Part shown: piece by piece, positions 465 through 58,900 of the stretch
Position numbering within the stretch: position 1 is the stretch's first letter
Layout of the letters: each line of letters begins with the position of its first letter
DNA from: a virus
Virus record (IMG/VR): IMGVR_UViG_3300032516_000003
Coordinates: 65,341 to 129,340 of that record
DNA length: 64,000 nt
Direction: 5' to 3' (one strand)
Notes under the pieces: model-generated
Seen by the model: the letters and a program-made list of their open reading frames with translations, nothing else
Told to the model about the DNA's origin: nothing
The model's database searches: none
Position numbers and translations under genes: made by a program

Positions 465-941
465 ATGCCACAGTGGATTCACGACCGTGCCGATCGCATC
501 AGGGCCGAGAACCCCACGATGCCGGAGAGCGAGTCCTTCGCCATCTCCACGCAGCAAGCACACAAGCTCGGCAAGACGCCCAAGGGATACGGCACTGCCA
601 AGGGAAAGCGCGAAGCCATGAAGAAGTACGACGAGCCCAAGAGTGAGTACCAGAAGACTGCCATGCTCATCGGCCTCTTCGATGAGCTCGACAAGATCGC
701 CAAGGTGAATCCGGCGGCGATGCGCGAGCTGGCCGAGCAGGCAGCCAAGCGGGCGGCTCAGCATCGAAAGAAGGGCAAGGAGAAGGGTAGCCAGGGCATG
801 GGCATGGATGCTGGTGGGGCTGCTGGTGGTGGTCCTGCAGCGGCCGCGGCCAGTGCACCTCCTCCACCGCCGCCACCTCCGCCGGCGGGAGGGGGCATGG
901 GCGCCGGTGGAGGGGCGGGTGGTCCAGGAGGCATGATGTGA
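465..941 (+). CDS. hypothetical protein with Pro9 / Gly-rich low-complexity C-terminal tail
   Basis: ATG preceded by GGTAGGAG. 158 aa ending in ...SAPPPPPPPPPAGGGMGAGGGAGGPGGMM. Confidence 0.55.
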   Translation: MPQWIHDRADRIRAENPTMPESESFAISTQQAHKLGKTPKGYGTAKGKREAMKKYDEPKSEYQKTAMLIGLFDELDKIAKVNPAAMRELAEQAAKRAAQHRKKGKEKGSQGMGMDAGGAAGGGPAAAAASAPPPPPPPPPAGGGMGAGGGAGGPGGMM

Positions 942-1168
942 ACCAGATCATGATGAAGGGTTTTCTGGACGAGCTCGGGAAGTTGAAGCTGGCAGGCAAG
1001 CTCCCGGAGGGGATCATTGAGAGTCTCCTCCGCCAGCCAGGCCGGTGGATCAACGCCAAGTACCAGGTGGATCGTGGCCGTGGTCTACAGCACGGCTTCA
1101 ACGAGGCAATCGAGCAGGGCTACCCAGCCGGGTGGGTCAGTTTGGGTATGCGTCCTCGTGTGGGCTGA
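938..1168 (+). CDS. small hypothetical protein (GTG start overlapping upstream stop, GTGA)
   Basis: 76-aa ORF, translationally coupled at both ends. Its stop overlaps the ligase start as ATGA. Confidence 0.4.
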   Translation: MNQIMMKGFLDELGKLKLAGKLPEGIIESLLRQPGRWINAKYQVDRGRGLQHGFNEAIEQGYPAGWVSLGMRPRVG

Positions 1169-3219
1169 TGCTACTGTTGCGCAAACTCGCCGCCGAGGTG
1201 TTGATCACCCCCGAGGAACATGCCCCAGGCATTCCAGCCTCGCGGGAAATCCACGCCGTCCCTACGGTAAAGTCACCACAGACCTGGGAGTTCGCCGCGC
1301 AGCGTCACGAAGCTGTGAAAGCGGGAACTCACCTCGACTTGAGGCTTGTAGACCCCTCTGGGAAGGCTCACAGCTGGGCGCTTCCCAAGGCCCGGCTCCC
1401 AGAGCCCGGAGAGCGGGTCCTGGCCGTCCCCCAGCCCACGCACACGCGCTCCTACGCGGCCCTCCGGGGCACGTTCGACATCGAGGAGGGGTACGGGAAG
1501 GGTCGCGTCACCTCGACCGGCCTAGAGCCTATAGAAGTGGTTCAAGCTCGTCCGGGGGTCATTCGGTTCAACCGCTACACCGGCACCAAGTCTGGTACGC
1601 AGGAATACATTCTCTCCCAGACTCCTGGTGGCCACCTGCTCCAGAATGTCACGGCCACCGCCGCCCACGGCATCCCGGGCACTGTAGGCGGGCCCATCCC
1701 GCAGTCCAAGCCGGCCTACCGCGAGGTCAAGGAGCCCGAGAAGCTCCAGTTCGAAGACTCCAGGACTGTCCACCAGACCAAGCTAGATGGGTCACATGTG
1801 ACCTATCATCTCTACGCCGGCCGACCGGTCAAGGTCTTCTCCTACCGGCCCACTGAACGGGCCAGCGGAGTGATCGAGCACACGCACAAGGTCCCTGGCT
1901 GGTTTGATCTGGTACCCCCAAAGGAGCTGCACAACACGGTGGTCCGGGGCGAGCTCTTCGGCATGCGCGGTGACAAGGCCATCCCCAACGCGGAGCTTGG
2001 TGGGCTGCTCAACGCCACCACCTGGAACAGCCGGAAGCAGCAGGAGGAGACTGGCGCTCAGCTTCGCCGTGCGATCTTCGACGTGGTCAAGTTCCGCGGC
2101 AAGAACATGGAGCAGGCGCCCTACGCGGAGAAGCTCGAAGTCCTCAAGCAGATCCAGGAGCGTCTCCCAGCCCTTCAGATCCCACCGACTGCAGCTACGA
2201 CTGCAGCCAAGCGCAAGCTCTTCGCGAAGATCGAAGCCGGCAAGCATCCGCTCACGGATGAAGGCGTGGTGGAGTGGCACCTCGATCGGCCACTGCCCAC
2301 CAAGTTCAAGTTCCGCCCCGACCACGATGCCGAGGTAGTAGGAGTCACCCCCGGCGCGGGCAAGTTCAAGGACGCCATTGGTGCCCTGCAGGTCAAGCTT
2401 CCCGGCAAGGATACGGTGACGCACGTAGGCACTGGCCTGAGCGAGGAACTCCGCCGGCAGATCGCCCAGAGCCCACAAGACTACATCGGCCGCGTGGCGA
2501 AAGTCAGGTCGCAGCAGGTCTTCCCCAGCGGTAAGATGCGAGCACCATCCTTCGCTGGGTGGCACCTGGAGAAGGGCAGGCCACTAGAGAAAAGCGCCGC
2601 AGTGACCACGCTCCTGCAACCTCATCAAGAACGTGTGGTCCGCCGCATGCGGCAGCCTGATCAACAAAGGGAAGCGCCCGGCAACGGCCATCCGCTCGCT
2701 CAGTTCCGTAGTATTCTAGCCAAGCAAGCTTCGGTCTACCACTTCACCTCACCGGAGACTCATGCGAAGATCAAGGCCCATGGTGCGATTCGTCCTGTAG
2801 ATGAACTTGATCCCGGACAGGTAAAGCGCTATCAAGGAAGGGACGAATCTACTGAGTCCATCCTCCGCAGAGTCAGGATACTCAAGCCAGAGGAGAAGTA
2901 CCGCAACTACGGTGTGTACACGACGCCGCTGGAACCAGGGTCGATAGATCTGAAGGCCTTCCGTGGCCCACACTTCAAGATCCCAGACGAGAATATCCCT
3001 AAGGATAGCCTCCTGATCTACCAGCACCCAGACACAGGAAGACGCATCAGAACGGAATACACCCCAGAAGCAGCTGAAAAAGCAAAGGCGGCCTGGACTC
3101 AGGACAAGATTGACAAGTGGCTAGAGATCTGTGAGGCACGCAAGGCTAGGGGTCTGAAAGGATTCCCCTTCTCCAAGCTGCCACAAGTCGTCAGCTTCGC
3201 TCCAGTGCCGGTGAGGTGA
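1168..3219 (+). CDS. LigD-type 3'-phosphoesterase domain fused to ATP-dependent DNA ligase, plus an unknown ~200-aa C-terminal domain
   Basis: N-terminal HLDLRLVD...SWALPKARLPEPGERVLAVPQPTHTRSY matches LigD PE-domain signatures (HxDLRLE, SWAVPKGPS, RLAV..EDHP). Ligase motif I is TKLDGSHV (KxDG adenylation lysine). Motif IV is EGVVEW. OB-domain motif VI is GKMRAPSFAGWHLEKG. The start was chosen at ATG 1168 (MLLLRK), which overlaps the upstream stop as ATGA. The C-terminal ~2590-3219 is visibly lower in GC. Confidence 0.7.
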   Translation: MLLLRKLAAEVLITPEEHAPGIPASREIHAVPTVKSPQTWEFAAQRHEAVKAGTHLDLRLVDPSGKAHSWALPKARLPEPGERVLAVPQPTHTRSYAALRGTFDIEEGYGKGRVTSTGLEPIEVVQARPGVIRFNRYTGTKSGTQEYILSQTPGGHLLQNVTATAAHGIPGTVGGPIPQSKPAYREVKEPEKLQFEDSRTVHQTKLDGSHVTYHLYAGRPVKVFSYRPTERASGVIEHTHKVPGWFDLVPPKELHNTVVRGELFGMRGDKAIPNAELGGLLNATTWNSRKQQEETGAQLRRAIFDVVKFRGKNMEQAPYAEKLEVLKQIQERLPALQIPPTAATTAAKRKLFAKIEAGKHPLTDEGVVEWHLDRPLPTKFKFRPDHDAEVVGVTPGAGKFKDAIGALQVKLPGKDTVTHVGTGLSEELRRQIAQSPQDYIGRVAKVRSQQVFPSGKMRAPSFAGWHLEKGRPLEKSAAVTTLLQPHQERVVRRMRQPDQQREAPGNGHPLAQFRSILAKQASVYHFTSPETHAKIKAHGAIRPVDELDPGQVKRYQGRDESTESILRRVRILKPEEKYRNYGVYTTPLEPGSIDLKAFRGPHFKIPDENIPKDSLLIYQHPDTGRRIRTEYTPEAAEKAKAAWTQDKIDKWLEICEARKARGLKGFPFSKLPQVVSFAPVPVR

Positions 3220-20748: not shown

Positions 20749-22575
20749 ATGGACGCTGACCTGGCAACGATCGTCGGTGCTGCCCCCGAGCCGAAGACTC
20801 CAAAGGCCCGCATCGGCCGCCTCAAGAAGCTCAGTGACTACGACGATCCGTGGGGTGGAGACGGCACCAAGCTCATGCCCTACCTACGCCGCATCCATAA
20901 GATGGGTGCGGTGAAACTGGCCGAGCCTCCACCGCCAAAGGGCGTGTCGGTGAAGGAGTGGGACAAGATCTTGGCCGGCAAGCTGAAGACCGCCGAGGAT
21001 CGGCCAGTCGCCGAGACCAAGTTCCAGGACCTCAAGATCGGCATCGAGAACCCCAAGGGATCGGTGCGTGAAGGGACCGATCGGAACGGCCATCACTGGC
21101 GCACCGAGATGAAACTCCTCTATGGTTTCATCAGGGGCGTCAAGGGCAAGGATGGGGACAGCGTGGACGTCTTCGTCGGCCCGGACAAGGAAGCCGACAA
21201 GGCCTTCGTCGTCCACCAGAAGACACCGGACGGCAAGAATTACGACGAGGATAAGGTCTTCCTCGGACTGCACTCCAAGCAGGAAGCCAAGGAGGCCTTC
21301 ATGGCCCACAACGACAACCCCAAGGCCTTTGGTGACGTCGCCGAGGTTTCGATGGACCGACTGCAGCAACTCTGTGAAGAGAAGGGCCGGCTCACCAAGA
21401 TCTCCCAGGCCTCCTATGTCTCCTTCCTCCAAGAGACGATGAAGCTGGCCTCGGAAGCGGAGCAACTGCGCCAAGGTGAGAAGGTCGAGCGGGAGCATGA
21501 GGGCACCATCGAGTACCTCAAGCGTGAGCCGAACATGCCTGTGGGCAAGGTCGAGCGGCTCATCGCCTCAGATCATCTGCGTGAGATCCCCGACTACTAC
21601 ACCCGGCTCAAGAAGATGGAGGAAGGAGCCAAGGAGAAGCAGGCAGCGCCAGTTGGTCTGATCGGCAAGCTTCTCTCCTCTGGCCCGGCCAAGAACCTCG
21701 CGAGCATGGCGGTGAGGAACCCGACCTCGACCTTGCGGCTGGCAGGTGGCGCGGGTGGGGCTCTGGTCGGTGCTGGCGTTGGTGCAGCCTCGGCCGAGCC
21801 TGGCAGTCGCATGAGCGGGGCCCTGAAGGGCGGTCTCATTGGTGGCGGTCTCGGTCTCGGCGCCGGTCATCTTGCCGGCAAGAGCAAGGCCATTCTTGGC
21901 GGCACGAGAAGCCTGGGAACCCGACTGGGCGGCACGGCGACTGGAGCGGGACAGGCTGCTGCCAAGGCACCAGGCGCGATCAAGATGGGTCCAGCGGTCC
22001 AGAGGACTCCCGGCACGCCGCCCCCTCCGGCCGCCGGCGTGGCAGGACCCACGCCAGTCGAAGCTGGAGCCGCACCGAAGATCGCCTCAGCGAAGCTGGC
22101 CTGGAGTTGGGAGGGCTTCAAGGAAGGCCTTCAGGACGAAGGCATCCCACTCTCAGGCGCGACGATCGGCGCTGGACTAGGCCACGCCATCAAGAAGGGC
22201 AAGGGTCTGACTGGCGCTGCTCTAGGATATGCCGCAGGCAGTGGCGCCTCCATCTTGCAGTCAAAGCTCAAGGGTGAGGAACCCTCTACCGCGCGGAAAG
22301 TGCTGGCCCTCAGTGGCATGGGCTATGGCATGGGCGGTCTTACTCACGCTGGGCTGGAACGCATCACCAAGAACATCAAGCCCGGGGCACTCAAATCGAT
22401 CTTCCACGAAGGGGCCAAAGACACGTGGAAGGCGCGCCTCATGCAAGCCGGAGCAGAAGAGGGCATCCCAGCTCTGGGGGCTACCGCCATGACGGGGGTA
22501 GCATTGGCCACTGACAAGTCGCATCGGGGCGGTCACGTTACCCCACCAACGGAGCGTGGAGCGCCGATAGGATAG
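20749..22575 (+). CDS. protein with N-terminal inorganic-pyrophosphatase-like domain, coiled coil and Gly-zipper C-terminus
   Basis: KIGIENPKGSVREG...YGFIRGVKGKDGDSVDVFVGPD...DEDKVFLGLH parallels family-I PPase motifs. The C-terminus is rich in GxxxG repeats. Confidence 0.45.
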   Translation: MDADLATIVGAAPEPKTPKARIGRLKKLSDYDDPWGGDGTKLMPYLRRIHKMGAVKLAEPPPPKGVSVKEWDKILAGKLKTAEDRPVAETKFQDLKIGIENPKGSVREGTDRNGHHWRTEMKLLYGFIRGVKGKDGDSVDVFVGPDKEADKAFVVHQKTPDGKNYDEDKVFLGLHSKQEAKEAFMAHNDNPKAFGDVAEVSMDRLQQLCEEKGRLTKISQASYVSFLQETMKLASEAEQLRQGEKVEREHEGTIEYLKREPNMPVGKVERLIASDHLREIPDYYTRLKKMEEGAKEKQAAPVGLIGKLLSSGPAKNLASMAVRNPTSTLRLAGGAGGALVGAGVGAASAEPGSRMSGALKGGLIGGGLGLGAGHLAGKSKAILGGTRSLGTRLGGTATGAGQAAAKAPGAIKMGPAVQRTPGTPPPPAAGVAGPTPVEAGAAPKIASAKLAWSWEGFKEGLQDEGIPLSGATIGAGLGHAIKKGKGLTGAALGYAAGSGASILQSKLKGEEPSTARKVLALSGMGYGMGGLTHAGLERITKNIKPGALKSIFHEGAKDTWKARLMQAGAEEGIPALGATAMTGVALATDKSHRGGHVTPPTERGAPIG

Positions 22576-30710: not shown

Positions 30711-33700
30711 TTATGCTTTGGCGCTCGACCATGCGTAGCCAGCACCCATATCCACGTTCAGGGGCACCAGCAGATCGAACGGCAGTGGGTGCTCCATGAG
30801 CTCGCGGATGATCGGCATGGCCTCCACCACAGTCTCTTCTGGCACCTCGAACACCAGCTCATCGTGGACCTGGAGCAGCATCTGCACGCCCAGGCTCCGC
30901 AAACGGGGATCGAGTTCACACTTCAGCATGGCGGCCTTGGCCACGTCAGCAGCCGATCCCTGGATCACCGAGTTGACCGACTGACGTTCGTTGCGGGCCA
31001 GGTTGGCTTTCTCACTGCCGCGCATGTGGTAGCGCGACATGTGCCCCAGGGTGGCCATCTCGGGGAACCGGCGGGGCCGGTTCAGGATGGTCTCGACGAA
31101 GTGGATGTCGGCGATGACGGCGTGGATGTCGTCGATGAAGTTCTTGATGTGAGGGTAGGGCTGGAAGTACTTCGCGATCTTCGCCTTGGCCTCGTCGACT
31201 GTGCAGTCTAGCGCCTTCGCCAGCTTCTTGGGGCCCTCGCCGTAATTCAGCGCGAAGCCGATTGTATTGTGCGTGATGAGGCCGTTAGCCAGGTAGAGGT
31301 GGTCGTCATCGGCCAATTCCAGATCGACACAGGGCCCGGGTCCCACAGGAATAACTGTCATGACTTGATCAGGCAGCTGCTTATGGGATGCCTTGCGCCG
31401 GATTCGATCACGCTTGCCCGGGTGCCTGATGTAGGATCTTAGAGTTGGCCCATCAGACCCCATCACTTTTAGTCGGAAGTACCATCTCCTGTACGTAGAG
31501 TTCCACCCCGGATCGAGCCCGATCTTCAGTCCACAAGCACGTGCCATGAAAGCCAGCTGTCCGGCAAAGATGCCATCCTTTGTCGTGAGGGATATGTCTC
31601 CATCCCTCTTGTCCACTGTGCCATCTGTGTCGATCAGGCCGCCTAGGAAATGCAGTGCCGCTTCCCTACCAGCCTGTAGGATCCATGAGGGCACCCTGAG
31701 CAATTTCTTACTGTTGCGGATCAAATCCAGCGCCTCTAAGTACTCGCCCGTATGCCTGCTCCCTATGTACAGGCTAGTGTTATGGCGTCTCACCGAATCG
31801 AGCCCGATGCGAGTGCAGGCGTGGTACAGATCATCCTGCCACGAACTGTAGGGATACCCGGATGCGTCGCTACTGCCACACGGCCCGTGAGCAAATCCGT
31901 ATGCGTGGTCGCTGCTCCTACATCCATCACCGAGAAAGAGCCCGGCAAAGTATGAGACGTCGTGGTCTAGGCACAGCACAGAAGCAGGTATGCCGCTGGT
32001 CATTTTCCGTTTCCAATGCGGATACGGATGAGTTCCGAGCTGAGGCACGGCTGCCTCAGCCAATCTATCACCGGGCATGAGATCTTCTGCCTTTCGCAGT
32101 GTGCCGTCTGCTAGCAGGAAGCGGTGATTGTGAGAGCACGTAAGTACACCGCGTCGGGCCACAACCTGTAGCAGTTCTTTTTCTCCTCCATTGTAGGTAG
32201 CTTTGACGGCTACTGCGCTTTCGCGCCTGCCAGTAGCGACCTGAATGCCCGAGCTGATCTCCAGGAAGGTGTCTGGATCTTCGCCGAACCGGAAGCTCTC
32301 CATGGGGCGCAGACCGTCAGACCACACCAACGTAGTCGGATGTACACACTTGGCGTCCTGTCGGTGCAGGACCATGGCCTTCTCTTCGTCACTCAGCTTG
32401 ATCGACGAGTCCTTGGCCGCAGCCTTCTTCTTCTTGATGGCCGCGATGAGCTCGTCGTAGTCGTGGTCGTACATCAGCGCCGCCGAGCCGGAGTGGATGT
32501 CCCAGCCTCGATTGATGACGCCGATCATGTTGGGGTCTTCCGAGAAGTGAGCGAGCAATCTCATCTCCAACTGCTCGTAGTCAGAGATCACTAGGACATG
32601 GCCATCCTTGGGCATGAACGCCTGTCGGATGACGTACTTGTCATTATCCGGCCTGGGAAGGTTTTGCAGATTCGGATCAACCGAGCTGAGGCGACCAGTG
32701 ACGGTGACGTGCTGGGTCATGGTGGCATGGATGCGCCCGTCCTGATCGGTCCACTTGCGCATGCCATCCACGTAGGTGCCCTTGAACTTGCTGAGCTCGC
32801 GGAGTTGCATCAGAAGCACGGCTGCTTCAACGCCGTCATCAGCCCAGATCTGCAGGCACTCCTCGTCTGTGGATGGTTGCCGATTGCCGCTATCCCCGCC
32901 CGAGGTCATCTTGATCGGCTTCAGCCCCAGCTTGGTGAAGAACAGTTCCCGGAGCTGAGGATTGCTGCGTGGATTGATCTCCTTACCCGCGACCTTGACC
33001 AGCTGCTTTTCTAGTCGGTCAATGTCCACTTGGATCGCCGGTGAGAGCGAGTCCAGATAGCCGACGTCGACCATGATGCCGCGGCGACAGCAGTTGTGGA
33101 GCACCCGGGTGAAGGGCATCTCGTAGGTCACGAAGTAGTCCCAGAGGGACTGCCCGAGGGTGTTGGTCTCCTTCTCCAATGCCGCCTTCAGGTAGCGGAA
33201 GACCTTGAGAGTGGCGTAGGCGTCCAGCGATGCGTAGGAGACCGCCTTCTCGAAGTCATCCCGCAGGCCACGCTGCAGCCGCTCCGGGATGGTCTCATTG
33301 CGCTTGACCGTGCCGAAGGTGTCTTTGAAGGACTTCATCTGCAGCTGGTGGTAGTCCCACATGGTCTCCTTGAGACCGTGTCGGCCCTGGCGATTCTCGT
33401 CATGCAGCCAATCCATCGCCAGGGTGCAGTAGGTATCCCCTTCGGGAACACGCACGCCGGAGTTGGCGAGCATGGAGAAGTCGAAGGTCTGGTTGGTGAA
33501 GTACCACTTGAGGTCCGGATCGGGAGCCAGCTCCCGGTCCCAGATCTTCAGCATGTTGGGGCTGAAGCAGTAGCGGGACTTCTCATCAGGACTGGCCGAC
33601 CAGAGAACTATGTGGTCCTTGCGTCGATCCAGTCCGGTGGTCTCGGTGTCCATGGCGCACTCGCCGGTGTCACGGACATGGCGCACGAACTTCATCATCT

Positions 33701-33749
33701 CGTCGGCCCTGTCCACGTACGTGACAGGGGGGACCCACTGGATCATCAT
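30711..33749 (-). CDS. polA: family-A DNA polymerase with 3'-5' exonuclease domain, interrupted by an intein
   Basis: Exo I AMDTETTGLD. Motif A DYEQLEMRLLAH. Motif B RQDAK|...|TIGFALNYG, split by the insert. Motif C VHDELVFEV. Confidence 0.85.
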   Translation of the reverse strand: MMIQWVPPVTYVDRADEMMKFVRHVRDTGECAMDTETTGLDRRKDHIVLWSASPDEKSRYCFSPNMLKIWDRELAPDPDLKWYFTNQTFDFSMLANSGVRVPEGDTYCTLAMDWLHDENRQGRHGLKETMWDYHQLQMKSFKDTFGTVKRNETIPERLQRGLRDDFEKAVSYASLDAYATLKVFRYLKAALEKETNTLGQSLWDYFVTYEMPFTRVLHNCCRRGIMVDVGYLDSLSPAIQVDIDRLEKQLVKVAGKEINPRSNPQLRELFFTKLGLKPIKMTSGGDSGNRQPSTDEECLQIWADDGVEAAVLLMQLRELSKFKGTYVDGMRKWTDQDGRIHATMTQHVTVTGRLSSVDPNLQNLPRPDNDKYVIRQAFMPKDGHVLVISDYEQLEMRLLAHFSEDPNMIGVINRGWDIHSGSAALMYDHDYDELIAAIKKKKAAAKDSSIKLSDEEKAMVLHRQDAKCVHPTTLVWSDGLRPMESFRFGEDPDTFLEISSGIQVATGRRESAVAVKATYNGGEKELLQVVARRGVLTCSHNHRFLLADGTLRKAEDLMPGDRLAEAAVPQLGTHPYPHWKRKMTSGIPASVLCLDHDVSYFAGLFLGDGCRSSDHAYGFAHGPCGSSDASGYPYSSWQDDLYHACTRIGLDSVRRHNTSLYIGSRHTGEYLEALDLIRNSKKLLRVPSWILQAGREAALHFLGGLIDTDGTVDKRDGDISLTTKDGIFAGQLAFMARACGLKIGLDPGWNSTYRRWYFRLKVMGSDGPTLRSYIRHPGKRDRIRRKASHKQLPDQVMTVIPVGPGPCVDLELADDDHLYLANGLITHNTIGFALNYGEGPKKLAKALDCTVDEAKAKIAKYFQPYPHIKNFIDDIHAVIADIHFVETILNRPRRFPEMATLGHMSRYHMRGSEKANLARNERQSVNSVIQGSAADVAKAAMLKCELDPRLRSLGVQMLLQVHDELVFEVPEETVVEAMPIIRELMEHPLPFDLLVPLNVDMGAGYAWSSAKA
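31266..32348 (-). mobile_element. intein (361 aa, LAGLIDADG type) in Pol A motif B
   Basis: Starts at Cys468 (CVHPTTLVW). Contains YFAGLFLGDGC and LGGLIDTDGTV. Ends ...LYLANGLITHN with +1 Thr. The surrounding DNA is lower in GC. Confidence 0.8.
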
Positions 33750-35028: not shown

Positions 35029-35980
35029 TGACGCTCTGTATGACTTCCCTACTGAGGTTGTCGGGTTGTACCTTCTCGTCTTCGTAGTGCTCGGGGTACT
35101 CGCACACCTTGACGTCCAGGCCGCGCTCAGCTAGTCGGCAGCCTGTGTCGAGGGTTCCCTCCAATCCCGCTTGGTCATGATCCAGGAACAGGTAGATTGT
35201 CGCTCCCAAGCGGCTGAGCGTCAGTTCCTGGGCCCGGCTCATCCGGCTGCCCTGTAGGGCCACGGTCCATGGCCAGCCCTGCTGGATGAGCCAGATGCAG
35301 GCCTTGTATCCCTCCGCGATGATCAGCGTGTCCAGATCACCGTAGAAGATGTCCGGGAACACGTTGTGCATGTTCCACAGGAAGTTGTGGTTCCTGATCT
35401 CGTACCGCTCGTAGCGCGCCTTTACCGTGACGTCATCAGGCGCGTACTGCAACAGGTCAGCCGCCTTGTACACCTTGTAGCGCGGGCTGTCCTCATCTCT
35501 GACCGCTCGGCCAGAGATCCCCACCAAGTTGCCGTACAGATCCCGGATGGGGAAGGTGATTCGCAGCTCCCGCTTGTCGAAACCGATCTCCAGCTCTGCC
35601 AGCAGCTGCTTGTCAAAGCCAGCCTTCACCAGATCTGTTGGGCAGTACTGGAACACGCCCAACAGACTCTCGTTGATGAAGTGCTCACCCTTGCCCGGGT
35701 CGCGATCCTTGAGTGGATCCTTCGCCGGCTTGAGCTGCACGTTCTCCATGATCTGGTCGATCTGGGTGGAGGGGGCCCGCATCGCCTTGAGGAACTGGAG
35801 CAGCGTGCCCTTGGCGTGACAGGTGTGGCAGTACCAGAGACCGGTCTCGACGTTGATGTAGAAGCTGGGGTGCGACTCCTGGCCACCCTTGTGGAATGGA
35901 CAGGGGCCGCCCACGTTGTTGTTGCCTGAGGGCTTCACGAACCTCAGGAACTTCTGGGCGATGTCGAGTACGGTGCTCAA
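34919..35980 (-). CDS. DnaG-like DNA primase (zinc-binding plus Toprim)
   Basis: CPFHKGGQESHPSFYINVETGLWYCHTCHAKG (CHC2 zinc finger). IIAEGYKACIWLIQ...LFLDHDQAG (Toprim E...DxD). Confidence 0.7.
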   Translation of the reverse strand: MSTVLDIAQKFLRFVKPSGNNNVGGPCPFHKGGQESHPSFYINVETGLWYCHTCHAKGTLLQFLKAMRAPSTQIDQIMENVQLKPAKDPLKDRDPGKGEHFINESLLGVFQYCPTDLVKAGFDKQLLAELEIGFDKRELRITFPIRDLYGNLVGISGRAVRDEDSPRYKVYKAADLLQYAPDDVTVKARYERYEIRNHNFLWNMHNVFPDIFYGDLDTLIIAEGYKACIWLIQQGWPWTVALQGSRMSRAQELTLSRLGATIYLFLDHDQAGLEGTLDTGCRLAERGLDVKVCEYPEHYEDEKVQPDNLSREVIQSVIDAAPDFRVWRRDNGLQRSPKSSIQSADSRRQRSPC

Positions 35981-38745
35981 TTCTTCCCTTTCTCCTTTTT
36001 GCCCTTGAACGCCTTGGCCGCGACGGTATGTACGATGTTGGAGAGAGCCGCCGGCGTGCGCGGCCCATCGCTGTTCTTCTTGCGCTCCGCCTTGAGATTG
36101 TCGGAACCCTTGAAGAAGGCCGCGACGTCCTTGCGCTGGTAGAAGATTACCGGTTCCGTTTGAGGCTCACCCGCTTCATTGGTGAGCACCACACCCTCGT
36201 CGTTGCGCTTCTTGCGCATGACCACGCCGAAGTCGGTGGCCGCGTTGCCGTGGATGACGAAGCCGTACAGGTTGATCTCACGTGCGGCAGGGATGCAGAG
36301 CGCCAACAGGTTGCGCTCCGGGTCTCCGGTCTCTTCCTTGTTCACCTCCATGCACAGGTCGGCGTTCATCCCGTAGGCATCCGCGAAGGCGATGTTCCGC
36401 ACCGAGTAGCCTCGGGAATCCTCGGAATCACGGTTGGCCTGGGTGGTGATGACAATGGGACGCCGGTAGACCATCGCCGTCTCCTTCAGCTCCGTGACGA
36501 TGTCGGCCTGGTCCTCCCACTTGATCGACCGCTTGCCCGACTTGTCGTTCTTCATCAGGTAGGCGGCGTCCACGTAGATGATGTCCGGGTTGTGGTCGCG
36601 GATCTTCTGCTTGAGTCCTTCTACGCCACCACCATACTCGCCGCGGCGAGACTGATCTGTGGTGATGATGAAGCCCTTGTTGAACCCGGACTCCAGCCGG
36701 CAAGTCTCCTCATCAATCACCACCGTGTCCATCAGCGTGCGCAGGCGGTCCTTCATGGTGCCACCTTCCCAGACGGCAATCTGGTCCAGGCGACCCTTCC
36801 GGTAGGCGGAGTAGGGAGCATTGATGAGCAGACATGCAGTCCGGTCCATCATCTGCTCGGGCGACATCTCCCGGGTGTAGACCAGCACCCGGCGGTTGTG
36901 GTTGTAGGCGTGGACCGCCATTGACAGCAACACCCAGGTGTTATGCACGATGAAGTTCTCGACCACGAAGTTCGGATCTTGGCCATCCTCGATGCAGATG
37001 TCGTAGCAGGGGAGCACTCCGAGGTGCTCGATGCTCTTGATGCGCTCCCAGATGATGTCGCTGTCTGCCACCTTCTGCAGTTCGGGACTTTCGAGGGCCC
37101 GCGCCAAGAGCTGGAGCAGGTGCCTGCTGATGCGACCGGTCCTACGGAAGAACTTGCTCGCATCCAGCTTTGATCCGCCCCAGCGGGGCCAGGGCTTATC
37201 GACCTTGGCCTCCAATATCTGGGCCATGAGTCGATCGCTGTAAGGCACAGCATCGGCGTTCCTCTTCTCCATGACGTCGAGCATTGCCAGGCGCTCTAGG
37301 GCCTGCCGCTTTCGTGTCAGGCACAGATGGCTGCCGAGTACCTCATGGAGTTGCTGATGCTGTTCCTTGGAGTAAACCACCAGCATGTATGCGAACGTGT
37401 CGAAGTTGGTGACCAATTCTTGGATTCTCCCGCGGATACCAAAACGAGAGAGCAGATGCTGCACCCCTTCAAGTAGCTTTCTGCTGGCGCTGCTCCAGGA
37501 CACCGTGCTGCGAGAAACATGCCCATCCGTGTCTAGCAAGCCGGCGAGGAAAGCTGCCACAGATGCGGGGCTCGATCTGAAGATGCTTTCGGGGACCTCC
37601 TTGTCTGGTCCCTTCTTACCGTGCATCCCCAATTCGTGCAGACGATCTAGCAGTAGGTTGTGTTTACCCGATGCACGTACAATGCGGTATTCGATGGGTC
37701 GTGTCTCTTGGTGCAGCTCACAGTTGAACAGCGAAGAGGAGAGGCGCTCTACGAGAGCCTTCAATTCTTCATCCTCAGTGGTGAACTGCACCTCGTCCCT
37801 GGTGTAGTTGCCATCCCCAACGAGCATTCCTAGTAGTTGCGCTTCATCGGTTTCGATCTTGCTGCTGGGTTCCGTCTCTGGCAGTCGTCGTGCAGTGGCT
37901 ACGTAGTCTCCAGGTTGGAGCTCGCAGATGCGGCGATAACCACCGCCTGGCACCATGTAGAGGTGCTCTGTGCTGGTTCGCAGCAGAAGACCTGACTCAG
38001 TCTCAACCTCTACTGAGTCTTTCTCTCCGCTTACCACGCGCCGAGCTCGTGCCCACCTGGTCTTTCCCGTCTTTTCGGTGTAGGAGGGTACATCGAGCGA
38101 CTCAGGTAGCTGCTCGATGGGAACCAAGGAACCGTCACGCAGCATGATCTTCTGGCCGACCGGAACGCACTTCATCGACTTGGGCCGGCCGTATAGGACG
38201 ATCAGCTCTCGATTCTGGATACCACGAGTCTCCTCGTTCAGCGGCTTCCAGGGGTACGGGATGCCTTGGACGCTCTCCGGATTCTCGTACCGCTCGTAGC
38301 GCGCCATCGTCTCCTGCATGTAGCTGGAGACCTCGATGTCCTTGCCGATGCGGCGATCCTTGGAGACGGCTTCCAGGCGAGAGAGCGAGCGCGCCAGCAG
38401 CGCGTCAACATCCTTATGCTTCTTGTTGTTGTCCAGGATGTCATCGCATAACGCGCCCAGCTCCCGATTGGTGCGGTAGTCGAGCAGGTCCTTGATGTGT
38501 ACTGCCAGTGGTGTGCGGCTGGTGCGCGGCAGGGAGATGTGTGGGAACTTCTCCTCCAGTCGTTCACGGGTGGGTACTGTGCCCTTGCTCTCATCCGACT
38601 CGTAGAACGCGGCGATGTCATTCCACAGCTGCCGCGCCCCATCATCGGCGAAGCACTCGGCCGAAACCCCTTCGTCGACTGCCAGCCGGAAGTTGCCTTC
38701 CTCGACGAGCTTGGCGATGAACAGCAGCTCTTCGTTGGCCGGCAT
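35977..38745 (-). CDS. DnaB-like replicative helicase interrupted by an intein in the P-loop
   Basis: Walker A GRPKSMK|...|TWVLLSMAV. Downstream SxEMS-like REMSPEQM and Walker B IIYVDAAYLM. Start set at MPANEE (TGATG overlap with the upstream stop). Overlaps the primase start as ATGA. Confidence 0.75.
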   Translation of the reverse strand: MPANEELLFIAKLVEEGNFRLAVDEGVSAECFADDGARQLWNDIAAFYESDESKGTVPTRERLEEKFPHISLPRTSRTPLAVHIKDLLDYRTNRELGALCDDILDNNKKHKDVDALLARSLSRLEAVSKDRRIGKDIEVSSYMQETMARYERYENPESVQGIPYPWKPLNEETRGIQNRELIVLYGRPKSMKCVPVGQKIMLRDGSLVPIEQLPESLDVPSYTEKTGKTRWARARRVVSGEKDSVEVETESGLLLRTSTEHLYMVPGGGYRRICELQPGDYVATARRLPETEPSSKIETDEAQLLGMLVGDGNYTRDEVQFTTEDEELKALVERLSSSLFNCELHQETRPIEYRIVRASGKHNLLLDRLHELGMHGKKGPDKEVPESIFRSSPASVAAFLAGLLDTDGHVSRSTVSWSSASRKLLEGVQHLLSRFGIRGRIQELVTNFDTFAYMLVVYSKEQHQQLHEVLGSHLCLTRKRQALERLAMLDVMEKRNADAVPYSDRLMAQILEAKVDKPWPRWGGSKLDASKFFRRTGRISRHLLQLLARALESPELQKVADSDIIWERIKSIEHLGVLPCYDICIEDGQDPNFVVENFIVHNTWVLLSMAVHAYNHNRRVLVYTREMSPEQMMDRTACLLINAPYSAYRKGRLDQIAVWEGGTMKDRLRTLMDTVVIDEETCRLESGFNKGFIITTDQSRRGEYGGGVEGLKQKIRDHNPDIIYVDAAYLMKNDKSGKRSIKWEDQADIVTELKETAMVYRRPIVITTQANRDSEDSRGYSVRNIAFADAYGMNADLCMEVNKEETGDPERNLLALCIPAAREINLYGFVIHGNAATDFGVVMRKKRNDEGVVLTNEAGEPQTEPVIFYQRKDVAAFFKGSDNLKAERKKNSDGPRTPAALSNIVHTVAAKAFKGKKEKGKN
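36940..38169 (-). mobile_element. intein (410 aa, LAGLIDADG type) in the helicase P-loop
   Basis: CVPVGQKIMLRDG... with LLGMLVGDGNY and LAGLLDTDGHV. Ends NFIVHN with +1 Thr. Confidence 0.8.
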
Positions 38746-39104
38746 CAGTTCACCTTGCGGAGCACGATCTGACTCTTGGGAAAGATCAAGGTGCCGGCCG
38801 TGCCTTCGACTAGACATAGCGTGTAGCGGTCGATCCACTTGAGCGTGCCGGCGTACTCTTTCTCGCCATACATCACCACTACGACCGACCCAATCCAGTC
38901 GCGCACCTCGGTGTGCCAGTTGTCCTGGACGTTCAGCAGATCCTTCAGCTGCCGCACGTCCTTCTCCAGCCGGTCCACCTTGTCCTTCAGACTCTGTAGC
39001 TTCTTGGACTGATCATTCTGGGGCATGGGAGGTCTCCTGAGGGTGGGGGGAGTGGCAGCATCTACTGCCTCGAATTGAACGTCAAGACAGTAGATGCCAA
39101 CCAC
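38745..39104 (-). CDS. coiled-coil protein with possible Sm/Hfq-like C-terminal domain
   Basis: SVVVVMYGEKEYAGTLKWIDRYTLCLVEG...IFPKSQIVL resembles the Sm1/Sm2 pattern. Confidence 0.35.
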   Translation of the reverse strand: MVGIYCLDVQFEAVDAATPPTLRRPPMPQNDQSKKLQSLKDKVDRLEKDVRQLKDLLNVQDNWHTEVRDWIGSVVVVMYGEKEYAGTLKWIDRYTLCLVEGTAGTLIFPKSQIVLRKVN

Positions 39105-49219: not shown

Positions 49220-52200
49220 GTGGCTACCTCCTCGATGTTCGGCGGCTCCCAGAGCGCGATGCGCTTCTCCCACACCCGTGGGAGAATCAGCGGCAGTCAG
49301 GACTACGGGCTTCAGTACCCCAGCCCCTTCTTCGACATCGCCCACACGTACCTGCCGGCCACCGTCAAGCAGATGTTCCGGTGGTGCCGGTACTACTTCC
49401 TCGTCAACCCACTGATCAACGCCATCGTAGCCAAGATGTCCGAGTACCCGGTCACGGACATCATCTTCGACACGGAGAAGCCGGAGCTCAAGCAACAGTG
49501 GAAGGACTTCCTGCTGGAGCACCTGCGCTATCGAGCGTTCCAGATCGAGACGGGCCTCGACTACTACACCTACGGCAACACCCTGATCAGCATCTTCTAC
49601 CCCTTCATCAAGCTGCTGGTCTGCCCATCTTGTGGCAAGAAGACGCCGGCCCGCGAGGCGGAGTACCGCTTTCAGAACTTCCAGTTCATCATCAGCTGCA
49701 GCTGTGGTCACCACGGCCCGGCTGATACGGTGGACCACTACATCCGGGCGCCCAAGGGCATCCGGCTGCTGCGCTGGAATCCTGAGGACGTGGACATCCG
49801 CTACAACGACATCACCGGCGAGTACGAGTACTACTACACGGTCCCCACGCCACTGCGGAACGACATCATCATGGGCCGCAAGTCGACGGTGGAGACTGTG
49901 CCCCAGTTGTTCATCGACGCCTTGAGGCTAAAGAAGGCGGTCGTCTTCAGCCGTGACAACATCTACCACTTCAAGCGCCCCACCTTGGCCACCAAGGATC
50001 GCGGCTGGGGCACGCCGATGATCCTGCCGGTGCTGAAGGACACCTTCTACCTGCAGATCCTGCGGAAGGCCCAAGAATGCGTGGCACCCTCGACACTCAT
50101 CGAGTCTGTTAATGGCCTGGTGCCGGCTGATGACGTACGGGTGGGGGATCTAGTTAGAACGCACACCGGCCAGTGGCAGCCAGTGGAGAAGAAGTGGTAT
50201 CGAGATGCCCGCGAGGAAGAGATCGGACGCAAAATCATACTGGCTGGGCTGCGACCGTTTGGTGCTGTCTACTCTCCACAGCACCCGGTGTTTAGCCTTC
50301 GTCGCAACGAGGAGGGTCGGAGGATTGATACCAAGGATCGCCAGCGATCTTCTGTGATCTTGCGCAACCCACACCTCTACGAAGAAGTGCTGTGTCCCGC
50401 CGAGCAGCTACAGGTAGGAGACTACGTGCTCTACCCGCGTCGGCTTCCGACGGAAGATACGACGGTAGACGTAGCCCAGTATACTGGACTGACATCTACA
50501 GATGGCTGGGTCTACAGTGGTTGCGGGGAAGAGACGGCACAGGCGTTTGAGGCTTTGGAGCGCGGTGAACATGTCACGCACGACAATGCAGGGCAGGTGG
50601 CAAAGAGGATCCTGAAGGAGGGCCGTACCCCCAAGCGTATGGCAGCCTCTAGGCTCATGACTGAGGACTTCGCCTACGTCTTGGGCTGGTACGCAGGAGA
50701 CGGCAGTTGTGGCACTCGCCACGTCACATTTTCCTTGGGCAAGAAGGACGACCCAGCGCCATTGATGGCCGCCATCAAACGCGAGTTCGATTCGGTCGCT
50801 ACTGTCGAGATGGGGGAGTCAATCAATTCGGTGGTACTGTCTGATGTCATAGTGCGTCAGCTGATCAAAGGCATGATCCCCGGCGTAGCCAGGATCAAGC
50901 GCGTCCCGATTGAGGTACTGAACGGCACGGATAAGGTGAAGTTGGCCTATCTGCGCGGGCTGTGGGAGGCCGATGGCTGCAGGAGCGAGCATCAAGCGAC
51001 GCTGGCTACCAGCAGCCGCGAGCAGGCGTACGACGTCTATCGCCTGCTGCTACACTTCGGCTGCATTGCTAGCGTAAACCAGCGTCAAACGGCTGACTCG
51101 CAGCTGTCTGACGGCAGAGTCATCGTTGGTGGTACCCACTACCATACAGTGGCCTGCAGTGCGTCTCGTGATCGCCTCATGTCTCTGCTGGAGTGCGGAG
51201 GTGGGCCAGAGATCACTTCAGGCAAGAGCGGCTTCTTCTGGAAGGACTATTTCGCGTCTAGGGTAAGCGCGATCGAGGAGTCTGATGAGGAGCAATACAT
51301 CGACTTCAAGGTCAAGAACGACACCACCTTCTGTACGCCGGGCACAGCGACGAAAAATTCTATTGCGCTCGAACACATCGTGCCTCTGCGAATCCTCTTC
51401 CCACAAGCCGGGTCTGCCACCAGCGACCCGTACTGTCTATCGGTCAGTACATTGGTGGAGATCAATAAGGGATATCTCCCCGCAGGCGAGGTGAAGGTAG
51501 GCGATCTGGTTAAGACCTATCGTGGCAAATACCTTCCGGTGATTGCGATCAAGCGACGCCTGGTCAAGAAAGCGGAGAAGGTGTACGCGATCGGGGTGGT
51601 TGGTATGTCGGCCTTCCCCGTGGAGGCGTCTGAAGACCATCCTTTCTTTGCGGTCCAAGCTGAGGGCCGGCAGAAGAGGTATATCGCGGACTGGCAGCCA
51701 GATTGGGTAGCGACTAAAGACCTGCAGATCGGGGACTATGTTGCCTATCCGTTAGCACGAGAGATCAAGAATAGCCTCTCGGTTGACGTAGCGCAGTATC
51801 TGAGCTCCTACGTGGCTACTGACGAGTGGGTATATCGGCAGATCACGAAGGAGGGGGCAGAAGTCTACGAGTATGTAGAGCAGAGAGAGCAGCGACTATT
51901 TGCGGGAGGAGAGCTGCAGCAAACTGCTGCACAACACGGCTGGTCAGTGCCCACTCTGCAAACTACCGCCAGCCGCTATCGGCGTGGCCATCGAACCTCC
52001 AGGATCCCGCGACATCTCTCATGGTCCAAGCATCTTGCTACGATCGTAGGGTACTACCTGGCCGAGGGTTGCATTGGGAATCATATTACCTTCTCTTTGC
52101 ATAAGAAGGAGACTTGGATCTGCGACGAACTAGATGTCGCCTTCACGGCGCTGTTGGGTAAGAAAGGCACCCGGCGAACTCATGGCGACAATGGCTTGGT

Positions 52201-55965: not shown

Positions 55966-58900
55966 ATGGCACGCCTGTCCCCGGAAGAGGGCTTTCAAGT
56001 CCTCGGAGACCGGGTCAAGGAGACGCTGACGGGCCTGTTCCCGATCGTAGGCAAGAAGCACACCCTGAGCCTTGATCAGGTAGAGGTCAAGGACAACCTC
56101 GATCTGGACGACATCCGCAGCCAGAAGGAAGCGCGCCTCAGCGGGCGCTCCTGGGCTGTTCCCGTTGAGGGTCGGGTGGCACTGGTGGACAATGCCACTG
56201 GTCGCGCCGTCGACTCGCAGAAGATCCGGCTGCTCAGCCTGCCCAAACACACCCGCCGCTACACGCACATCGTCAACGGCCGCGAGAAGCAGATCGACAA
56301 CCAGTGGCGGTTGAAGTCCGGCGTGTACGCTCGCATCAAGGAGAACGGCGAGCTGCAGTCGGACTTCAATCTGCGCAAGGGTGGCCGCGGCTTCGACATC
56401 GAATTCGATCCCAAGACCCACCAATTCAAGCTGGCGTACGGCACCTCGAACATCCCGCTCTCGCCACTCATGCAAGAGCTTGGCGTCCCGCGCGACACCA
56501 TTGAGCAGCAGTGGGGCAAGGAGATCACCAGCGCCAATCATGCTGATCGCGACCAGGCGGTGGCCAAGTTCTACCGCGCCTCGGTGGGCAAGCCCCCAGA
56601 GAGTCTGGAGCAGGCACGGGCCCATCTGCGTGACTCCTTCCAGAAGATGGAGGTCCGGCCGGACACCACGAGGATCACCTTGGGCAAGGAGCACACCCAG
56701 GTCACTGGTCACACACTGATGGACGCGGCCACCAAGCTGCTCCACGTCAGCCAGGGCAAGGCCCAGCCGGATGCTCGTGATGCGCTCATGTTCAAGGAGC
56801 TCCACTCGGTCGAGGACTTCATGGCTGAGCGGCTGCGTAAGGGCTCCCGCGACATCTTCCGCCGCATCCAGAACACCCTCGACAAGAAGACCAGTGTCCG
56901 CGACATCGTCGGTCCTAACATCTTCCACGGACCGATCGAGACGATGTACCGCACCTCACTGGTGAACGAGCCCAAGCAGATCAATCCGCTGGAGATGATC
57001 TCCGGCCAGATGAAGACCACCATCACTGGCGAGGGTGGCATCCAGAATGTCTACGGCATCACTGACGACGCCAAGCTGGTAGATGCCTCTCATCTGGGCT
57101 TCCTTGATCCCATTCACACGCCCGAGGGTGAAGCGACCGGCGTCAACCTGCGCTTGCCGTTGGGGGTCAAGAAGGTCGGTCACGACGTCGTAGTCCGAAT
57201 GTTCAACGTCCGGACTGGCAAGATGGAGCAGATCAATCCTGAGAAGGCGATGAATGCCACGGTAGCCCTGCCAGATCAGGTGAAGTGGGTTGGCGGCAAG
57301 CCCCACCCACTCGGCAAGGACGTACAAGTCAGTGGCCCCGGGAATGAGATCAAGACGGCCCCATTCAAGTCGGTCGACTACGTCATGCGAGACCCATCGC
57401 AGATGTTCTCGGTGTCGTCCAACCTGATCCCTTTCTTGCCCGCTGACCACCCCAACCGTAGCACCATGGCTGGCCGTCACATGGAGCAGGCCATATCACT
57501 GGTCCATCGCGAGCCGCCGCTGGTCCGGTCTGCCATCGTCGGCGGCAAGAAGATCATAGATGAGTGGGTCGGCAAGTTCGCTGGCCACAGCTCTCATGTG
57601 GATGGCACGGTGACGAAGGTGCAGAACGACGCCATCCACGTCAAAGACAAGGATGGCAAGAAGCACGAGATCCAGATCTACGATCACTTCCCGCTCAACG
57701 ATGACAAGTCTTTCCTCCACTCCACCCCGCTGGTGAAGGTGGGCGACCGAGTCAAGAAGGGCCAGCCGATCGCGGACAGCAACTTCACGCGTGGTGGCAC
57801 CCTGGCCTTGGGCACGAACCTGAAGGTCGGCTACTTGCCCTACAAGGGCTACAACTTCGAGGACGGTGTGGTCATCAGTGAGTCTGCGGCCAAGCAGCTC
57901 ACCAGCGAGCACCTGCACCAGAAGTCACTGGCTCTGGACAAAGAGCATGTGCTGGACAAGGCCAAGTACCAGGCCTACATGCCTGGTCGCCTGAATCGCG
58001 ATCAGATGGCCAAGATGGATGACGACGGGGTGGTCAAGCCGGGGCAGCTCGTGATGCCTGGCGACCCGCTAGTGCTGGCTCTGAAGAAGCACTCCGACCG
58101 GGGAGAGGATCGAGATCTGGCGCGGTTGCACCGCTCTCTGGTAAAGCCCTACCGAGATGACAGCATCATCTGGGAGCAGGATCATCCAGGTGTAGTGCAG
58201 GAGGTGGTGAAGCACGGCAAGCAGATCCTCGTGCACGTCAAGACCCAGGAGCAGGCAGAGATCGGGGACAAGGTGGCCGGCCGCCATGGCAACAAGGGGA
58301 TCATCACGTGTCATGATCAATGGACGGAGGTGCTGACTGGTCGCGGTTGGCTCAAATTCGAAGAGCTGCGCAAGGACGATCTCGTCTGCACTCTGAATCC
58401 AGAGACAGACGAGATCGAATATCACCGACCCACAGCCACTATCAGTCAGCAGCATCAGGGAAAGATGTTCCTGTTCGATGGGCCTCGTGTGAATCTATGT
58501 ACCACCCCTGAACATCGTCACTGGATACGCCCAATTCGTGGCGGGGCGTATCACTTCGAGACCTCGAAGGAGGTACACGCCCATGGCACGGTACACAAAC
58601 GTGGTGGATCGATTTGGGGTGGTACAGCAAAGAGACGAATCACGATCCCCGGTAGGCCAGCATTCAGGAAGGGTTGGCACGAGTACGATAGTCCGCGGTC
58701 TTACAACGCTGACGATTTCTTAGAATTCTTCGGGTACTGGATTACTGAAGGCTGCTTGTCTCGTAGTAGTGTGGTGATCGGGCAATCTCTTAACGCCAAT
58801 CCAGACACTTATGCGGCGATCAGGGCGTGTCTAGAGCGACTGGGGTACCGTGTGTCTGCGGGGTCGACCAGTTTGGCGATTGGGGATCCGCGGCTGGCCT

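Follow-up and report, generated by a model that had tools for sequence, protein, structure and literature searches.

We analysed a 683-residue protein encoded in a 64,000-nucleotide stretch of viral DNA (IMG/VR record IMGVR_UViG_3300032516_000003, positions 65,341 to 129,340), which we call the window and whose own numbering is used throughout. The protein joins a LigD-type 3'-phosphoesterase (PE) domain to a minimal ATP-dependent DNA ligase, followed by a short helicase vestige and a C-terminal domain with a predicted ADP-ribosyltransferase (ART) fold. With moderate confidence, we read it as a heal-and-seal core with a cargo slot, occupied here by an ART effector, that is probably packaged in the virion and ejected from it. 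The gene is laid out as follows (aa, amino acid positions).

1168 to 3219, plus strand: whole gene, 683 aa, encoding in order the PE domain, ATP-dependent DNA ligase, helicase vestige and predicted ART-fold module.
1216 to 1236, plus strand: boundary motif E-[F/H]-A-P-G-I-P, aa 17–23, just before the PE domain.
1273 to 1662, plus strand: PE domain, LigD-type 3'-phosphoesterase, aa ~36–165, assigned from profiles, invariant residues and an all-beta model with pLDDT >90.
1720 to 2292, plus strand: ligase nucleotidyltransferase (adenylation) domain, aa ~185–375, with motifs I, Ia, III, IIIa and IV.
2299 to 2577, plus strand: ligase motif V (nt 2302–2310) and the OB domain (aa 395–464 by Pfam) with motif VI.
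2584 to 2658, plus strand: SNF2-like helicase vestige (Q motif, LxPHQxRV), assigned from alignment with the relative P0072 and with the N-terminus of Gp217 of Salmonella phage Arash.
2665 to 3216, plus strand: predicted ART-fold module, here called domain X, aa 500–683, with the motifs Y-H525-[FY]-T, N-x-G-V-Y584-x-T-P and L-P-Q673-V-V-S.

The longest open reading frame (ORF) spans 1045–3219 on the plus strand, and its likely start is the ATG at 1168. An independent gene call on the source contig (ENA ERZ27248201 k141_3956766, 193.7 kb) gave the same 683-aa product. An earlier note, made from the letters of the sequence, had described the ORF at 1168–3219 as a PE fused to a minimal ligase lacking a polymerase domain, and the ORF and every motif it quoted are present.

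We started with the N-terminal domain, which that note had assigned to the LigD PE family. As a single sequence it matched Pfam LigD_N (PF13298) at 28.7 bits (E 1.5e-6), just below the 31.1 cut-off, and the NCBIfam LigD PE equivalog-domain model at E 1e-6, while phmmer against the PDB returned the archaeal PE structures 3p43 and 3p4h (E 3e-5). The family search gave more than 200 relatives; the family profile and alignment used here have 59 members. This profile matched the Korarchaeum PE 3p4h over residues 5–117 of 118 (E 2e-19), the Methanosarcina barkeri PE 3p43 (E 2e-13) and the P. aeruginosa LigD PE 3n9b (E 6e-11). The quoted PE motifs HLDLRL, SWALPK and RVLAVPQPTH fall at aa 55–60, 69–74 and 83–92, respectively. 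The catalytic set His47, His55, Asp57, Arg59, His92 and Tyr96 is invariant in 59 of 59 relatives and aligns with the QxH...HxDxRL...H-x3-Y pattern of the PE chains in the PDB; in the P. aeruginosa enzyme we take the equivalent set to be His42, His48, Asp50, Arg52, His84 and Tyr88. By these profile and residue matches the domain belongs unambiguously to the LigD-PE superfamily (PF13298 / TIGR02777). The boundary motif that precedes it has the family consensus x-x-E-F-A-P-G-I-P, or in its longer form x-x-E-F-A-P-G-I-P-x-x-R/K...L-P-x-V. A19, G21 and P23 are nearly invariant in the alignment and the Glu is found in 98 of 105 members. The motif stays at the PE junction even behind N-terminal accessory domains, being internal in P0005, P0018, P0121 and other relatives. 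Its small-x-Glu context resembles the cleavage consensus sites of prohead proteases.

The ligase motifs are I, K205-L-D-G (in KLDGSH, aa 205–210); Ia, R227; III, R260/E262; IIIa, F304/D305; IV, E365-G366 (in EGVVEW, aa 365–370); and V, K379-F-K381. Motif VI lies in the stretch GKMRAPSFAGWHLEKG (aa 455–470) and reads R458-A-P-S-F-x-x-W-H466-L-E-K469, with His466 replacing the usual Arg. The adenylation lysine K205, on which the ligase assignment of the earlier note hinged, is invariant in all 59 aligned relatives, as are D207, R260, D305, E365/G366 and H466; G208 (at least 90%), E262, F304, K379/K381 and P460/F462/K469 are nearly so. Matches to Pfam DNA_ligase_OB_2 (PF14743; E 1.2e-8, above cut-off), Pfam DNA_ligase_A_M (E 0.0026) and phrog_114, an ATP-dependent DNA ligase family (E 1.5e-18), agree with this, and the 59-member profile matched DNA ligases down to E 3e-7. 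An AlphaFold2 model of the core (aa 30–475), built with the same alignment, had pLDDT >90, and when it was compared with the PDB by Foldseek the top 50 matches were all DNA ligases (E 4e-14 to 2e-10). Neither Pfam nor NCBIfam detected a polymerase domain in the protein, and the full-length LigD models scored far below their cut-offs (NF004628, 28.7 vs 895 bits; TIGR02776, 14.6 vs 373). On the evidence of these profiles, the protein is a PE fused to a minimal nucleotidyltransferase-plus-OB DNA ligase and not a LigD orthologue. Ku was not found among the larger window ORFs scanned, although no search was aimed at it.

Next, we compared the architectures of 126 collected proteins, 123 of which align to the core. 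Among these 123, extensions of at least 100 aa occur at the C-terminus in 40 and at the N-terminus in 18, and 67 have neither. A P-loop kinase directly follows the ligase in 16 of the 126. The other modules comprise pyrophosphatases (InPase, about ten), GNAT (about four), C39 peptidase (three), NUDIX (two), DUF4269 (two), a 2H phosphoesterase, a GT28-like domain, an SNF2 helicase (P0072) and two ART-like domains, X and Y. Up to five modules share one protein, as in C39-InPase-kinase-PE-ligase (P0005) and PE-ligase-GNAT-GNAT-InPase (P0100). Seven loci have the flanking genes of the window, and they show six states at a single 3' slot: none (L001), ART (the window), helicase (L003), GT28-like (L009), kinase (L010 and L011) and GNAT (L012). 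Judging from these architectures, the PE-ligase is a constant core, and either end of it is a cargo slot in which unrelated modules are exchanged. Across the relatives, several unrelated enzymatic domains of conflict type are shuffled within one polypeptide, the pattern by which polyvalent proteins are recognized.

The kinase module bears on a suggestion of the earlier note, that the protein heals and seals ends in the manner of T4 polynucleotide kinase (Pnk) plus ligase. This analogy gains indirect support from the 16 kinase-bearing relatives, since the kinase completes a would-be trio of 3'-phosphatase, 5'-kinase and ligase, a support limited by the weak link of the module to polynucleotide kinases (CthPnkp kinase 4gp7, E 0.018–0.06; T4 Pnk, E 0.63). 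PHROGs classes it as a generic "ATPase", and its identity as a polynucleotide kinase is only suggestive. The purpose that the note offered for such repair, countering host nucleases that leave 3'-P ends, is speculative.

The family occurs in one lineage of phages. IMG/VR holds 46 core loci at 34–60% identity, many of them on contigs of 170–207 kb. Among 50,697 deposited phage genomes there was no match to the PE domain or to domain X, and searching them with the full protein gave distant ligases only. When 185,579 species-representative cellular genomes were scanned by pattern, no family member was found, a result that depends on the pattern and is not proof of absence. Text searches of the literature found no paper describing a phage PE-ligase. 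On these searches, the family is known from metagenomes only, in phages of ~170–207 kb with a fused beta-beta' RNA polymerase (RNAP).

We then asked how the C-terminal tail came to be attached. The earlier note had called the tail (2590–3219) markedly lower in GC; the drop is real (0.556, compared with 0.637 in the core and 0.607 in the window) but only moderate. GC at third codon positions falls from 0.776 in the core to 0.608 in the tail, and the tail is within the lowest 5.4% of 630-bp windows for GC. The remaining low-GC patches of the window coincide with intein or homing-endonuclease inserts, so that low GC in this window generally points to imported DNA. In the closest relatives, P0001 (91% identity, 490 aa) and P0002 (85%, 476 aa), the protein stops right after motif VI. 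The contig of P0002 (L001) is colinear with the window gene for gene, and in the DNA alignment 2586–3219 of the window stands in place of ~20 nt in L001. The ART domain is also more similar to its counterpart in P0121 (49% identity) than the core is to the core of that protein (43%), which we count towards insertion. From this alignment the tail, as part of the low-GC 2586–3219 stretch absent from the closest relatives, is a recent insertion.

The inserted stretch begins with what appears to be a scar of a former cargo. Between motif VI and the ART module lies LEKSAAVTTLLQPHQERVVRRMRQP (aa 473–497). This segment can be aligned with the first residues of the P0072 helicase module, where IEKIAEVKTELKPHQKRVIQRIKAQP precedes the Walker A sequence GMGSGKT, and with the N-terminus of the Arash Gp217 helicase, and the tblastn alignment of the window protein to L003 continues to aa 495. 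The vestige keeps the Q motif and ends just before the expected Walker A, where the ART module starts. Neither the window nor the ~30 kb of its flanks that we examined yielded an intact Gp217-like helicase. The simplest reading of this junction is that the ART module replaced a helicase cargo, all but its first ~25 residues.

The earlier note saw no recognisable motifs in the tail. At the level of sequence this stands: Pfam, PHROGs and NCBIfam gave nothing for domain X, its six members had no Pfam or PHROG match even at E up to 10, and the domain-X profile matched nothing in the PDB at E up to 10. A word-indexed search of 5.8 billion proteins with the single sequence gave no match, and with the profile it gave two, both already-known relatives. 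An exhaustive phmmer search of 1.84 billion representative proteins left domain X with only five true relatives. At the level of fold the claim did not hold, since structure prediction, which the note had proposed as a check, confidently gave an ART-fold module. The closest solved folds to aa 505–683 are DarT, whose matches span 108–127 residues, and Tpt1/KptA, whose matches span only ~70 (the NAD lobe). Further matches were SopF (score 6.5), OspC3 (6.0) and Tpt1/KptA (5.7–4.7), then pertussis toxin, PARPs, diphtheria toxin, C3 and Arr; a Foldseek search against viral models gave no significant match. According to the model, aa ~500–683 form a divergent ART-fold domain of the His type. Domain X has no sequence-profile membership in the described ART families (DarT/DUF4433, PTS_2-RNA, PARP). 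In the six-sequence alignment (pairwise identity 27–49%) 18 columns are invariant, including Y-H-[FY]-T, N-x-G-V-[YF]-x-T-P and L-P-Q-V-V-S. These motifs resemble H-Y-[E to Q] in the right strand order, a mapping of residues to sites that we infer from the model.

The five relatives of domain X differ in architecture, with five arrangements among them: X-Y-PE-ligase with X at the N-terminus (P0121), PE-ligase-X-Y (P0123), a decayed core followed by X (P0124) and two stand-alone X proteins (P0122 and P0125). P0124 (also 683 aa) keeps domain X, having lost the motif I lysine (K to Y), the PE His/Asp/Arg residues and the OB domain, which suggests that a core without catalysis can survive as a scaffold or carrier. 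Because domain X is found without the core, N-terminal or C-terminal to it and next to a decayed one, it is probably independent of ligation.

Could domain X be catalytically inactive, whether as a degenerate fold retained for binding, as a decoy or for a structural purpose, or as the decaying remnant left by a recent recombination? The expected catalytic Glu is apparently replaced by the invariant Gln673 of LPQVVS, if our mapping is right, no ART sequence profile matches, and the adjacent helicase vestige is a sign of disruptive rearrangement in the region. ARTs lacking the catalytic Glu, such as Tpt1 and several mono-ART PARPs, are nevertheless active. The 18 invariant columns, which take in the His and Tyr motifs at 27–49% identity, and the confidently predicted fold also speak for an active domain, and its retention in five different architectures indicates purifying selection on a functional site. 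We therefore regard inactivity, which concerns the tail alone and would be compatible with either a packaged or an intracellular protein, as rather unlikely.

Tpt1/KptA enzymes have a two-lobe architecture and an Arg-His-Arg-Arg catalytic tetrad. A second alternative is that the protein repairs RNA such as tRNA: the PE would heal the 2',3'-cyclic or 3'-phosphate ends left by host anticodon nucleases, the ligase would seal the RNA and the ART would remove the junction 2'-phosphate with NAD+ as Tpt1/KptA does. The core argues otherwise, having an OB domain with motif VI and best matches to DNA ligases throughout; matches to Pfam RNA_ligase are weak (E 0.005; 8.5e-5 for P0040). Some relatives carry modules typical of RNA repair (2H phosphoesterase or P-loop kinase), and KptA-type ARTs are known in phage RNA repair (PMC9503650). 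In domain X, however, the matches to Tpt1 are shorter than those to DarT, and the Tpt1 tetrad is not evident, as no Arg is invariant in the six-sequence alignment. Domain X persists by itself and next to a core without catalysis, which speaks against its being required for ligation; this independence weakens a Tpt1-style RNA repair and favours an effector role. We consider RNA repair quite improbable.

A second domain, Y (ALYHGSP...VFATPSR...KWGDRD), directly follows domain X or the ligase in P0121, P0123 and P0085. It is weakly DUF6886-like (E 0.002–0.005), and its YHGS motif suggests that it is another ART-like domain; P0032 carries a further module of VYHGTT type. In L003 1-27 (NCBI GCA_040960215.1), ~8 kb upstream of the PE-ligase-helicase gene and on the other strand, is a gene for a NADAR domain, a family that removes ADP-ribose. 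A weak tblastn match past the RNAP gene (L056 11368-11496, E 0.007) looked like a second copy of domain X and was rejected, as the 416-aa protein there lacks the domain-X motifs.

To place the protein in the biology of the phage, we examined its genomic setting. The ATG at 1168 overlaps the TGA of the upstream 76-aa ORF (GGGCTGATG), and the following gene begins 3 nt past the PE-ligase stop codon. The gene is part of an uninterrupted same-strand array in which stops and starts overlap or abut, and no promoter- or terminator-like sites were found between it and its neighbours in the window. This spacing indicates that it is translationally coupled to both neighbours. Upstream are genes weakly matching virion-structural or head-decoration families; downstream are Big_2 or tail-like genes and baseplate-wedge genes. 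By these annotations the gene belongs to a dense block of late or virion genes, and it lies outside the replication module (PolA, DnaB, RecA-like, UDG), which occupies the minus strand at 25–44 kb of the window.

The nearest deposited phages, as judged by RNAP (31–33% identity), are Vibrio phages D69, D181 and D148 (~187 kb) and Salmonella phage Arash (181 kb), and it is Arash that links the family to the virion. The helicase module of P0072 is homologous to Arash Gp217, with 40.7% identity over 99% of its length. Gp217 was detected in purified Arash virions with 38 unique peptides and 1148 spectra, and its gene adjoins that of RNAP beta' (Gp216), upstream of a run of structural proteins; RNAP beta was the most abundant protein detected in those virions (PMC10585845). 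In 19 of 52 core-containing loci the helicase is either fused to the core or its neighbour, and in 18 RNAP lies no more than 6 kb upstream of the core. The modules InPase, GNAT, ART, SNF2, NUDIX, 2H and peptidase are the repertoire of virion-delivered polyvalent proteins, among whose modifying enzymes ARTs are the most common (PMC5512222; PMC9503650). A text search of PMC5512222 found no LigD, and "ligase" three times, never as a PE-DNA-ligase core. The earlier note had missed the ART-fold C-terminus, its recent insertion into a variable slot, the virion-block setting and the virion helicase and RNAP links.

The main competing explanation is an ordinary intracellular ligase for replication, recombination or repair with a built-in 3'-end cleaner, which would not be packaged; the late-gene position would then be incidental and the accessory domains would be ordinary fusions of DNA or nucleotide metabolism. 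As expected for an essential replication gene, the core is conserved lineage-wide in the 46 IMG/VR loci and every ligase motif is intact. The ORFs scanned in the 64-kb window show no other ligase, and a pyrophosphatase fusion would be sensible for any ligase, because pyrophosphate (PPi) is a product of adenylylation. Against this, the gene lies outside the replication module and inside a tight structural block, the C39 peptidase, GNAT and ART add-ons fit a replicative ligase poorly, a homologue of an abundant virion protein is fused to the core or encoded next to it, and P0124 retains the scaffold after the loss of catalysis. On balance an ordinary ligase seems to us somewhat unlikely.

Several observations weigh against packaging and delivery. 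The flanking genes were called structural on weak PHROG and Pfam matches, and BLAST of them against the Arash capsid and tail proteins gave no matches. Arash has no match to the PE-ligase core, so that the packaging argument rests on the fusion partner and the neighbourhood; with 116 proteins, metabolic enzymes among them, its virion proteome is permissive (PMC10585845). No MuF or portal fusion was seen in the family, and a ligase conserved across the lineage could be just the phage's replicative ligase. In domain X, the apparent Gln in place of the catalytic Glu also counts against an ART effector. Taken by itself, we place packaging and injection of the PE-ligase just short of an even chance.

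We nevertheless favour a packaged heal-and-seal protein with an ART cargo, in which, we infer, the parts would act as follows. The metal-dependent PE would strip 3'-phosphates or 3'-ribonucleotides off broken strands, and the ligase, adenylylated on Lys205, would seal the cleaned 3'-OH/5'-P nick. In relatives, the kinase add-on would supply 5'-phosphorylation, and InPase fusions may drive ligase adenylylation forward by removing PPi. The ART cargo, closest in its predicted fold to DarT and Tpt1, would most likely be an independent NAD+-using effector acting on nucleic acid or a host target and not a step of ligation. By analogy with polyvalent proteins, the PE-ligase is probably synthesised alongside the virion proteins, enters the capsid together with the virion RNAP and leaves it with the DNA, after which it would protect or repair the incoming genome. 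A bolder proposal, which we offer tentatively and think doubtful, is that the PE-ligase core is the capsid-targeted chassis of an undescribed class of polyvalent proteins in RNAP-packaging phages. Injected with the genome, it would at once heal and seal damaged or nicked incoming DNA, or join its ends, and would bring in lineage-specific cargo; the cargo here would be a new His-type ART family that ADP-ribosylates nucleic-acid ends or a host defence or repair target, and x-x-E-F-A-P-G-I-P would be a maturation-protease site that frees the modules.

Other genes of the window and of related loci are of note. At 20749–22575 (plus strand), in the same structural-gene block, a 608-aa protein combines an InPase (PF18823, E 2e-38, polyvalent-protein type) with DUF5661; InPase is fused to the PE-ligase core in relatives, and a DUF5661 gene follows the core in L004 and L006. 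The C-terminal ~170 aa of this protein recur, at 45% identity, in the NUDIX protein encoded after P0123 in L005, and this shared part may serve both proteins as an anchor. At 465–941 (plus strand), the second gene before that of the PE-ligase encodes a 158-aa protein with a long Gly/Pro/Ala low-complexity C-terminal tail (…GGGPAAAAASAPPPPPPPPPAGGGMGAGGGAGGPGGMM); it is conserved in syntenic relatives (56–66% identity over the N-terminal part). At 55966–63141 (plus strand) lies a 2391-aa fused beta-beta' multisubunit RNAP (Rpb2_6, E 8e-54, and Rpb1 domains) with a LAGLIDADG insert in a low-GC patch at 58151–59581. In the ~187-kb phages L004 and L006 the RNAP is split into ~1480-aa beta/beta'-N and ~560–600-aa beta'-C genes ~6 kb apart, with the PE-ligase and DUF5661 genes in between; in the window and in L005 it is one fused gene. 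A 1951-aa ORF at 49220–55075 (plus strand) has Hint_2 and two LAGLIDADG domains and a C-terminus weakly matching the Arash portal (E 1.6e-6); this is probably a portal with an intein, and it lies just before the RNAP, an order also found in Arash. A family A DNA polymerase (PolA; 30711–33749, minus strand) and a DnaB-like helicase (35977–38838, minus strand) each have LAGLIDADG or intein insertions, and inteins or homing endonucleases invade at least four large genes of the window, which further encodes a RecA-like protein, UDG, a ResIII helicase and baseplate-like genes.

How does the protein compare with known systems? Bacterial LigD, which combines PE, ligase and polymerase and works with Ku, has the same six PE residues and a minimal nucleotidyltransferase-plus-OB ligase, with PE and ligase on one chain. 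Unlike it, the phage protein lacks a primase-polymerase, has an OB domain of the phage/Lig E type (PF14743) and is encoded by a phage in a virion gene block with swappable accessory modules. The stand-alone archaeal LigD-PE proteins (Cand. Korarchaeum 3p4h and Methanosarcina barkeri 3p43) are the best solved matches to the PE over its full length, but they are single-domain, whereas the phage PE is fused to a ligase and preceded by the E-F-A-P-G-I-P motif. T4 polynucleotide kinase-phosphatase plus ligase follows the same logic, a 3'-phosphate being cleaned before ligation, and 16 relatives add a P-loop kinase (with the weak Pnk link); in contrast to T4 Pnk, the phage 3'-end cleaner is a LigD-PE beta-barrel and not a HAD phosphatase, the ligase is of DNA type and the window protein has no kinase. 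Polyvalent proteins (Iyer et al. 2017, PMC5512222) have the same shuffled conflict-type modules, are encoded near virion genes and are predicted to be injected with the DNA, but the text search of that paper turned up no PE-DNA-ligase core; for our family no MuF or portal fusion was found, and the window protein has only three modules. DarT, an ADP-ribosyltransferase of single-stranded DNA, and Tpt1/KptA, an RNA 2'-phosphotransferase, act on nucleic acids and share the His-type N-terminal strand motif (Y-H-x-T) with domain X, which differs in having no detectable sequence similarity to them and Gln, not Glu, at the putative third catalytic position. Unlike DarT, domain X has no DarG/macro or NADAR partner next to it in the window. 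Arash Gp217 is homologous to the helicase module of P0072, and its Q motif survives as the 25-aa vestige in the window protein, which has lost the helicase body; in Arash the helicase is a separate gene beside RNAP beta'.

The superfamilies of all these domains were known, as were bacterial PE-ligase proteins without the polymerase, which occur among the "non-conventional" LigD variants (bioRxiv 10.1101/869602). What is new is a phage-borne PE-ligase family that acts as the constant core of a polyvalent-like architecture, one that swaps modules and is tied to the genes of virion RNAP and helicase, together with a very rare ART-fold family as its cargo and a helicase scar that documents the replacement of one cargo by another. 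LigD-PE is absent, by match, from the 50,697 deposited phage genomes, yet it is the core of a widespread metagenomic phage family. The cargo slot is a natural experiment in module exchange, with one core and one genomic position in six different states. Domain X adds a very rare and so far uncharacterised branch to the ART superfamily, which is central to the conflict between phages and their hosts. Whether or not it includes the kinase, a compact PE-ligase might also serve as a one-chain reagent for repairing "dirty" DNA ends. Packaging, if it occurs, would make the protein a phage counterpart of DNA-repair enzymes that large eukaryotic viruses carry in their virions, and would give phages a new means of surviving nuclease attack on incoming DNA.

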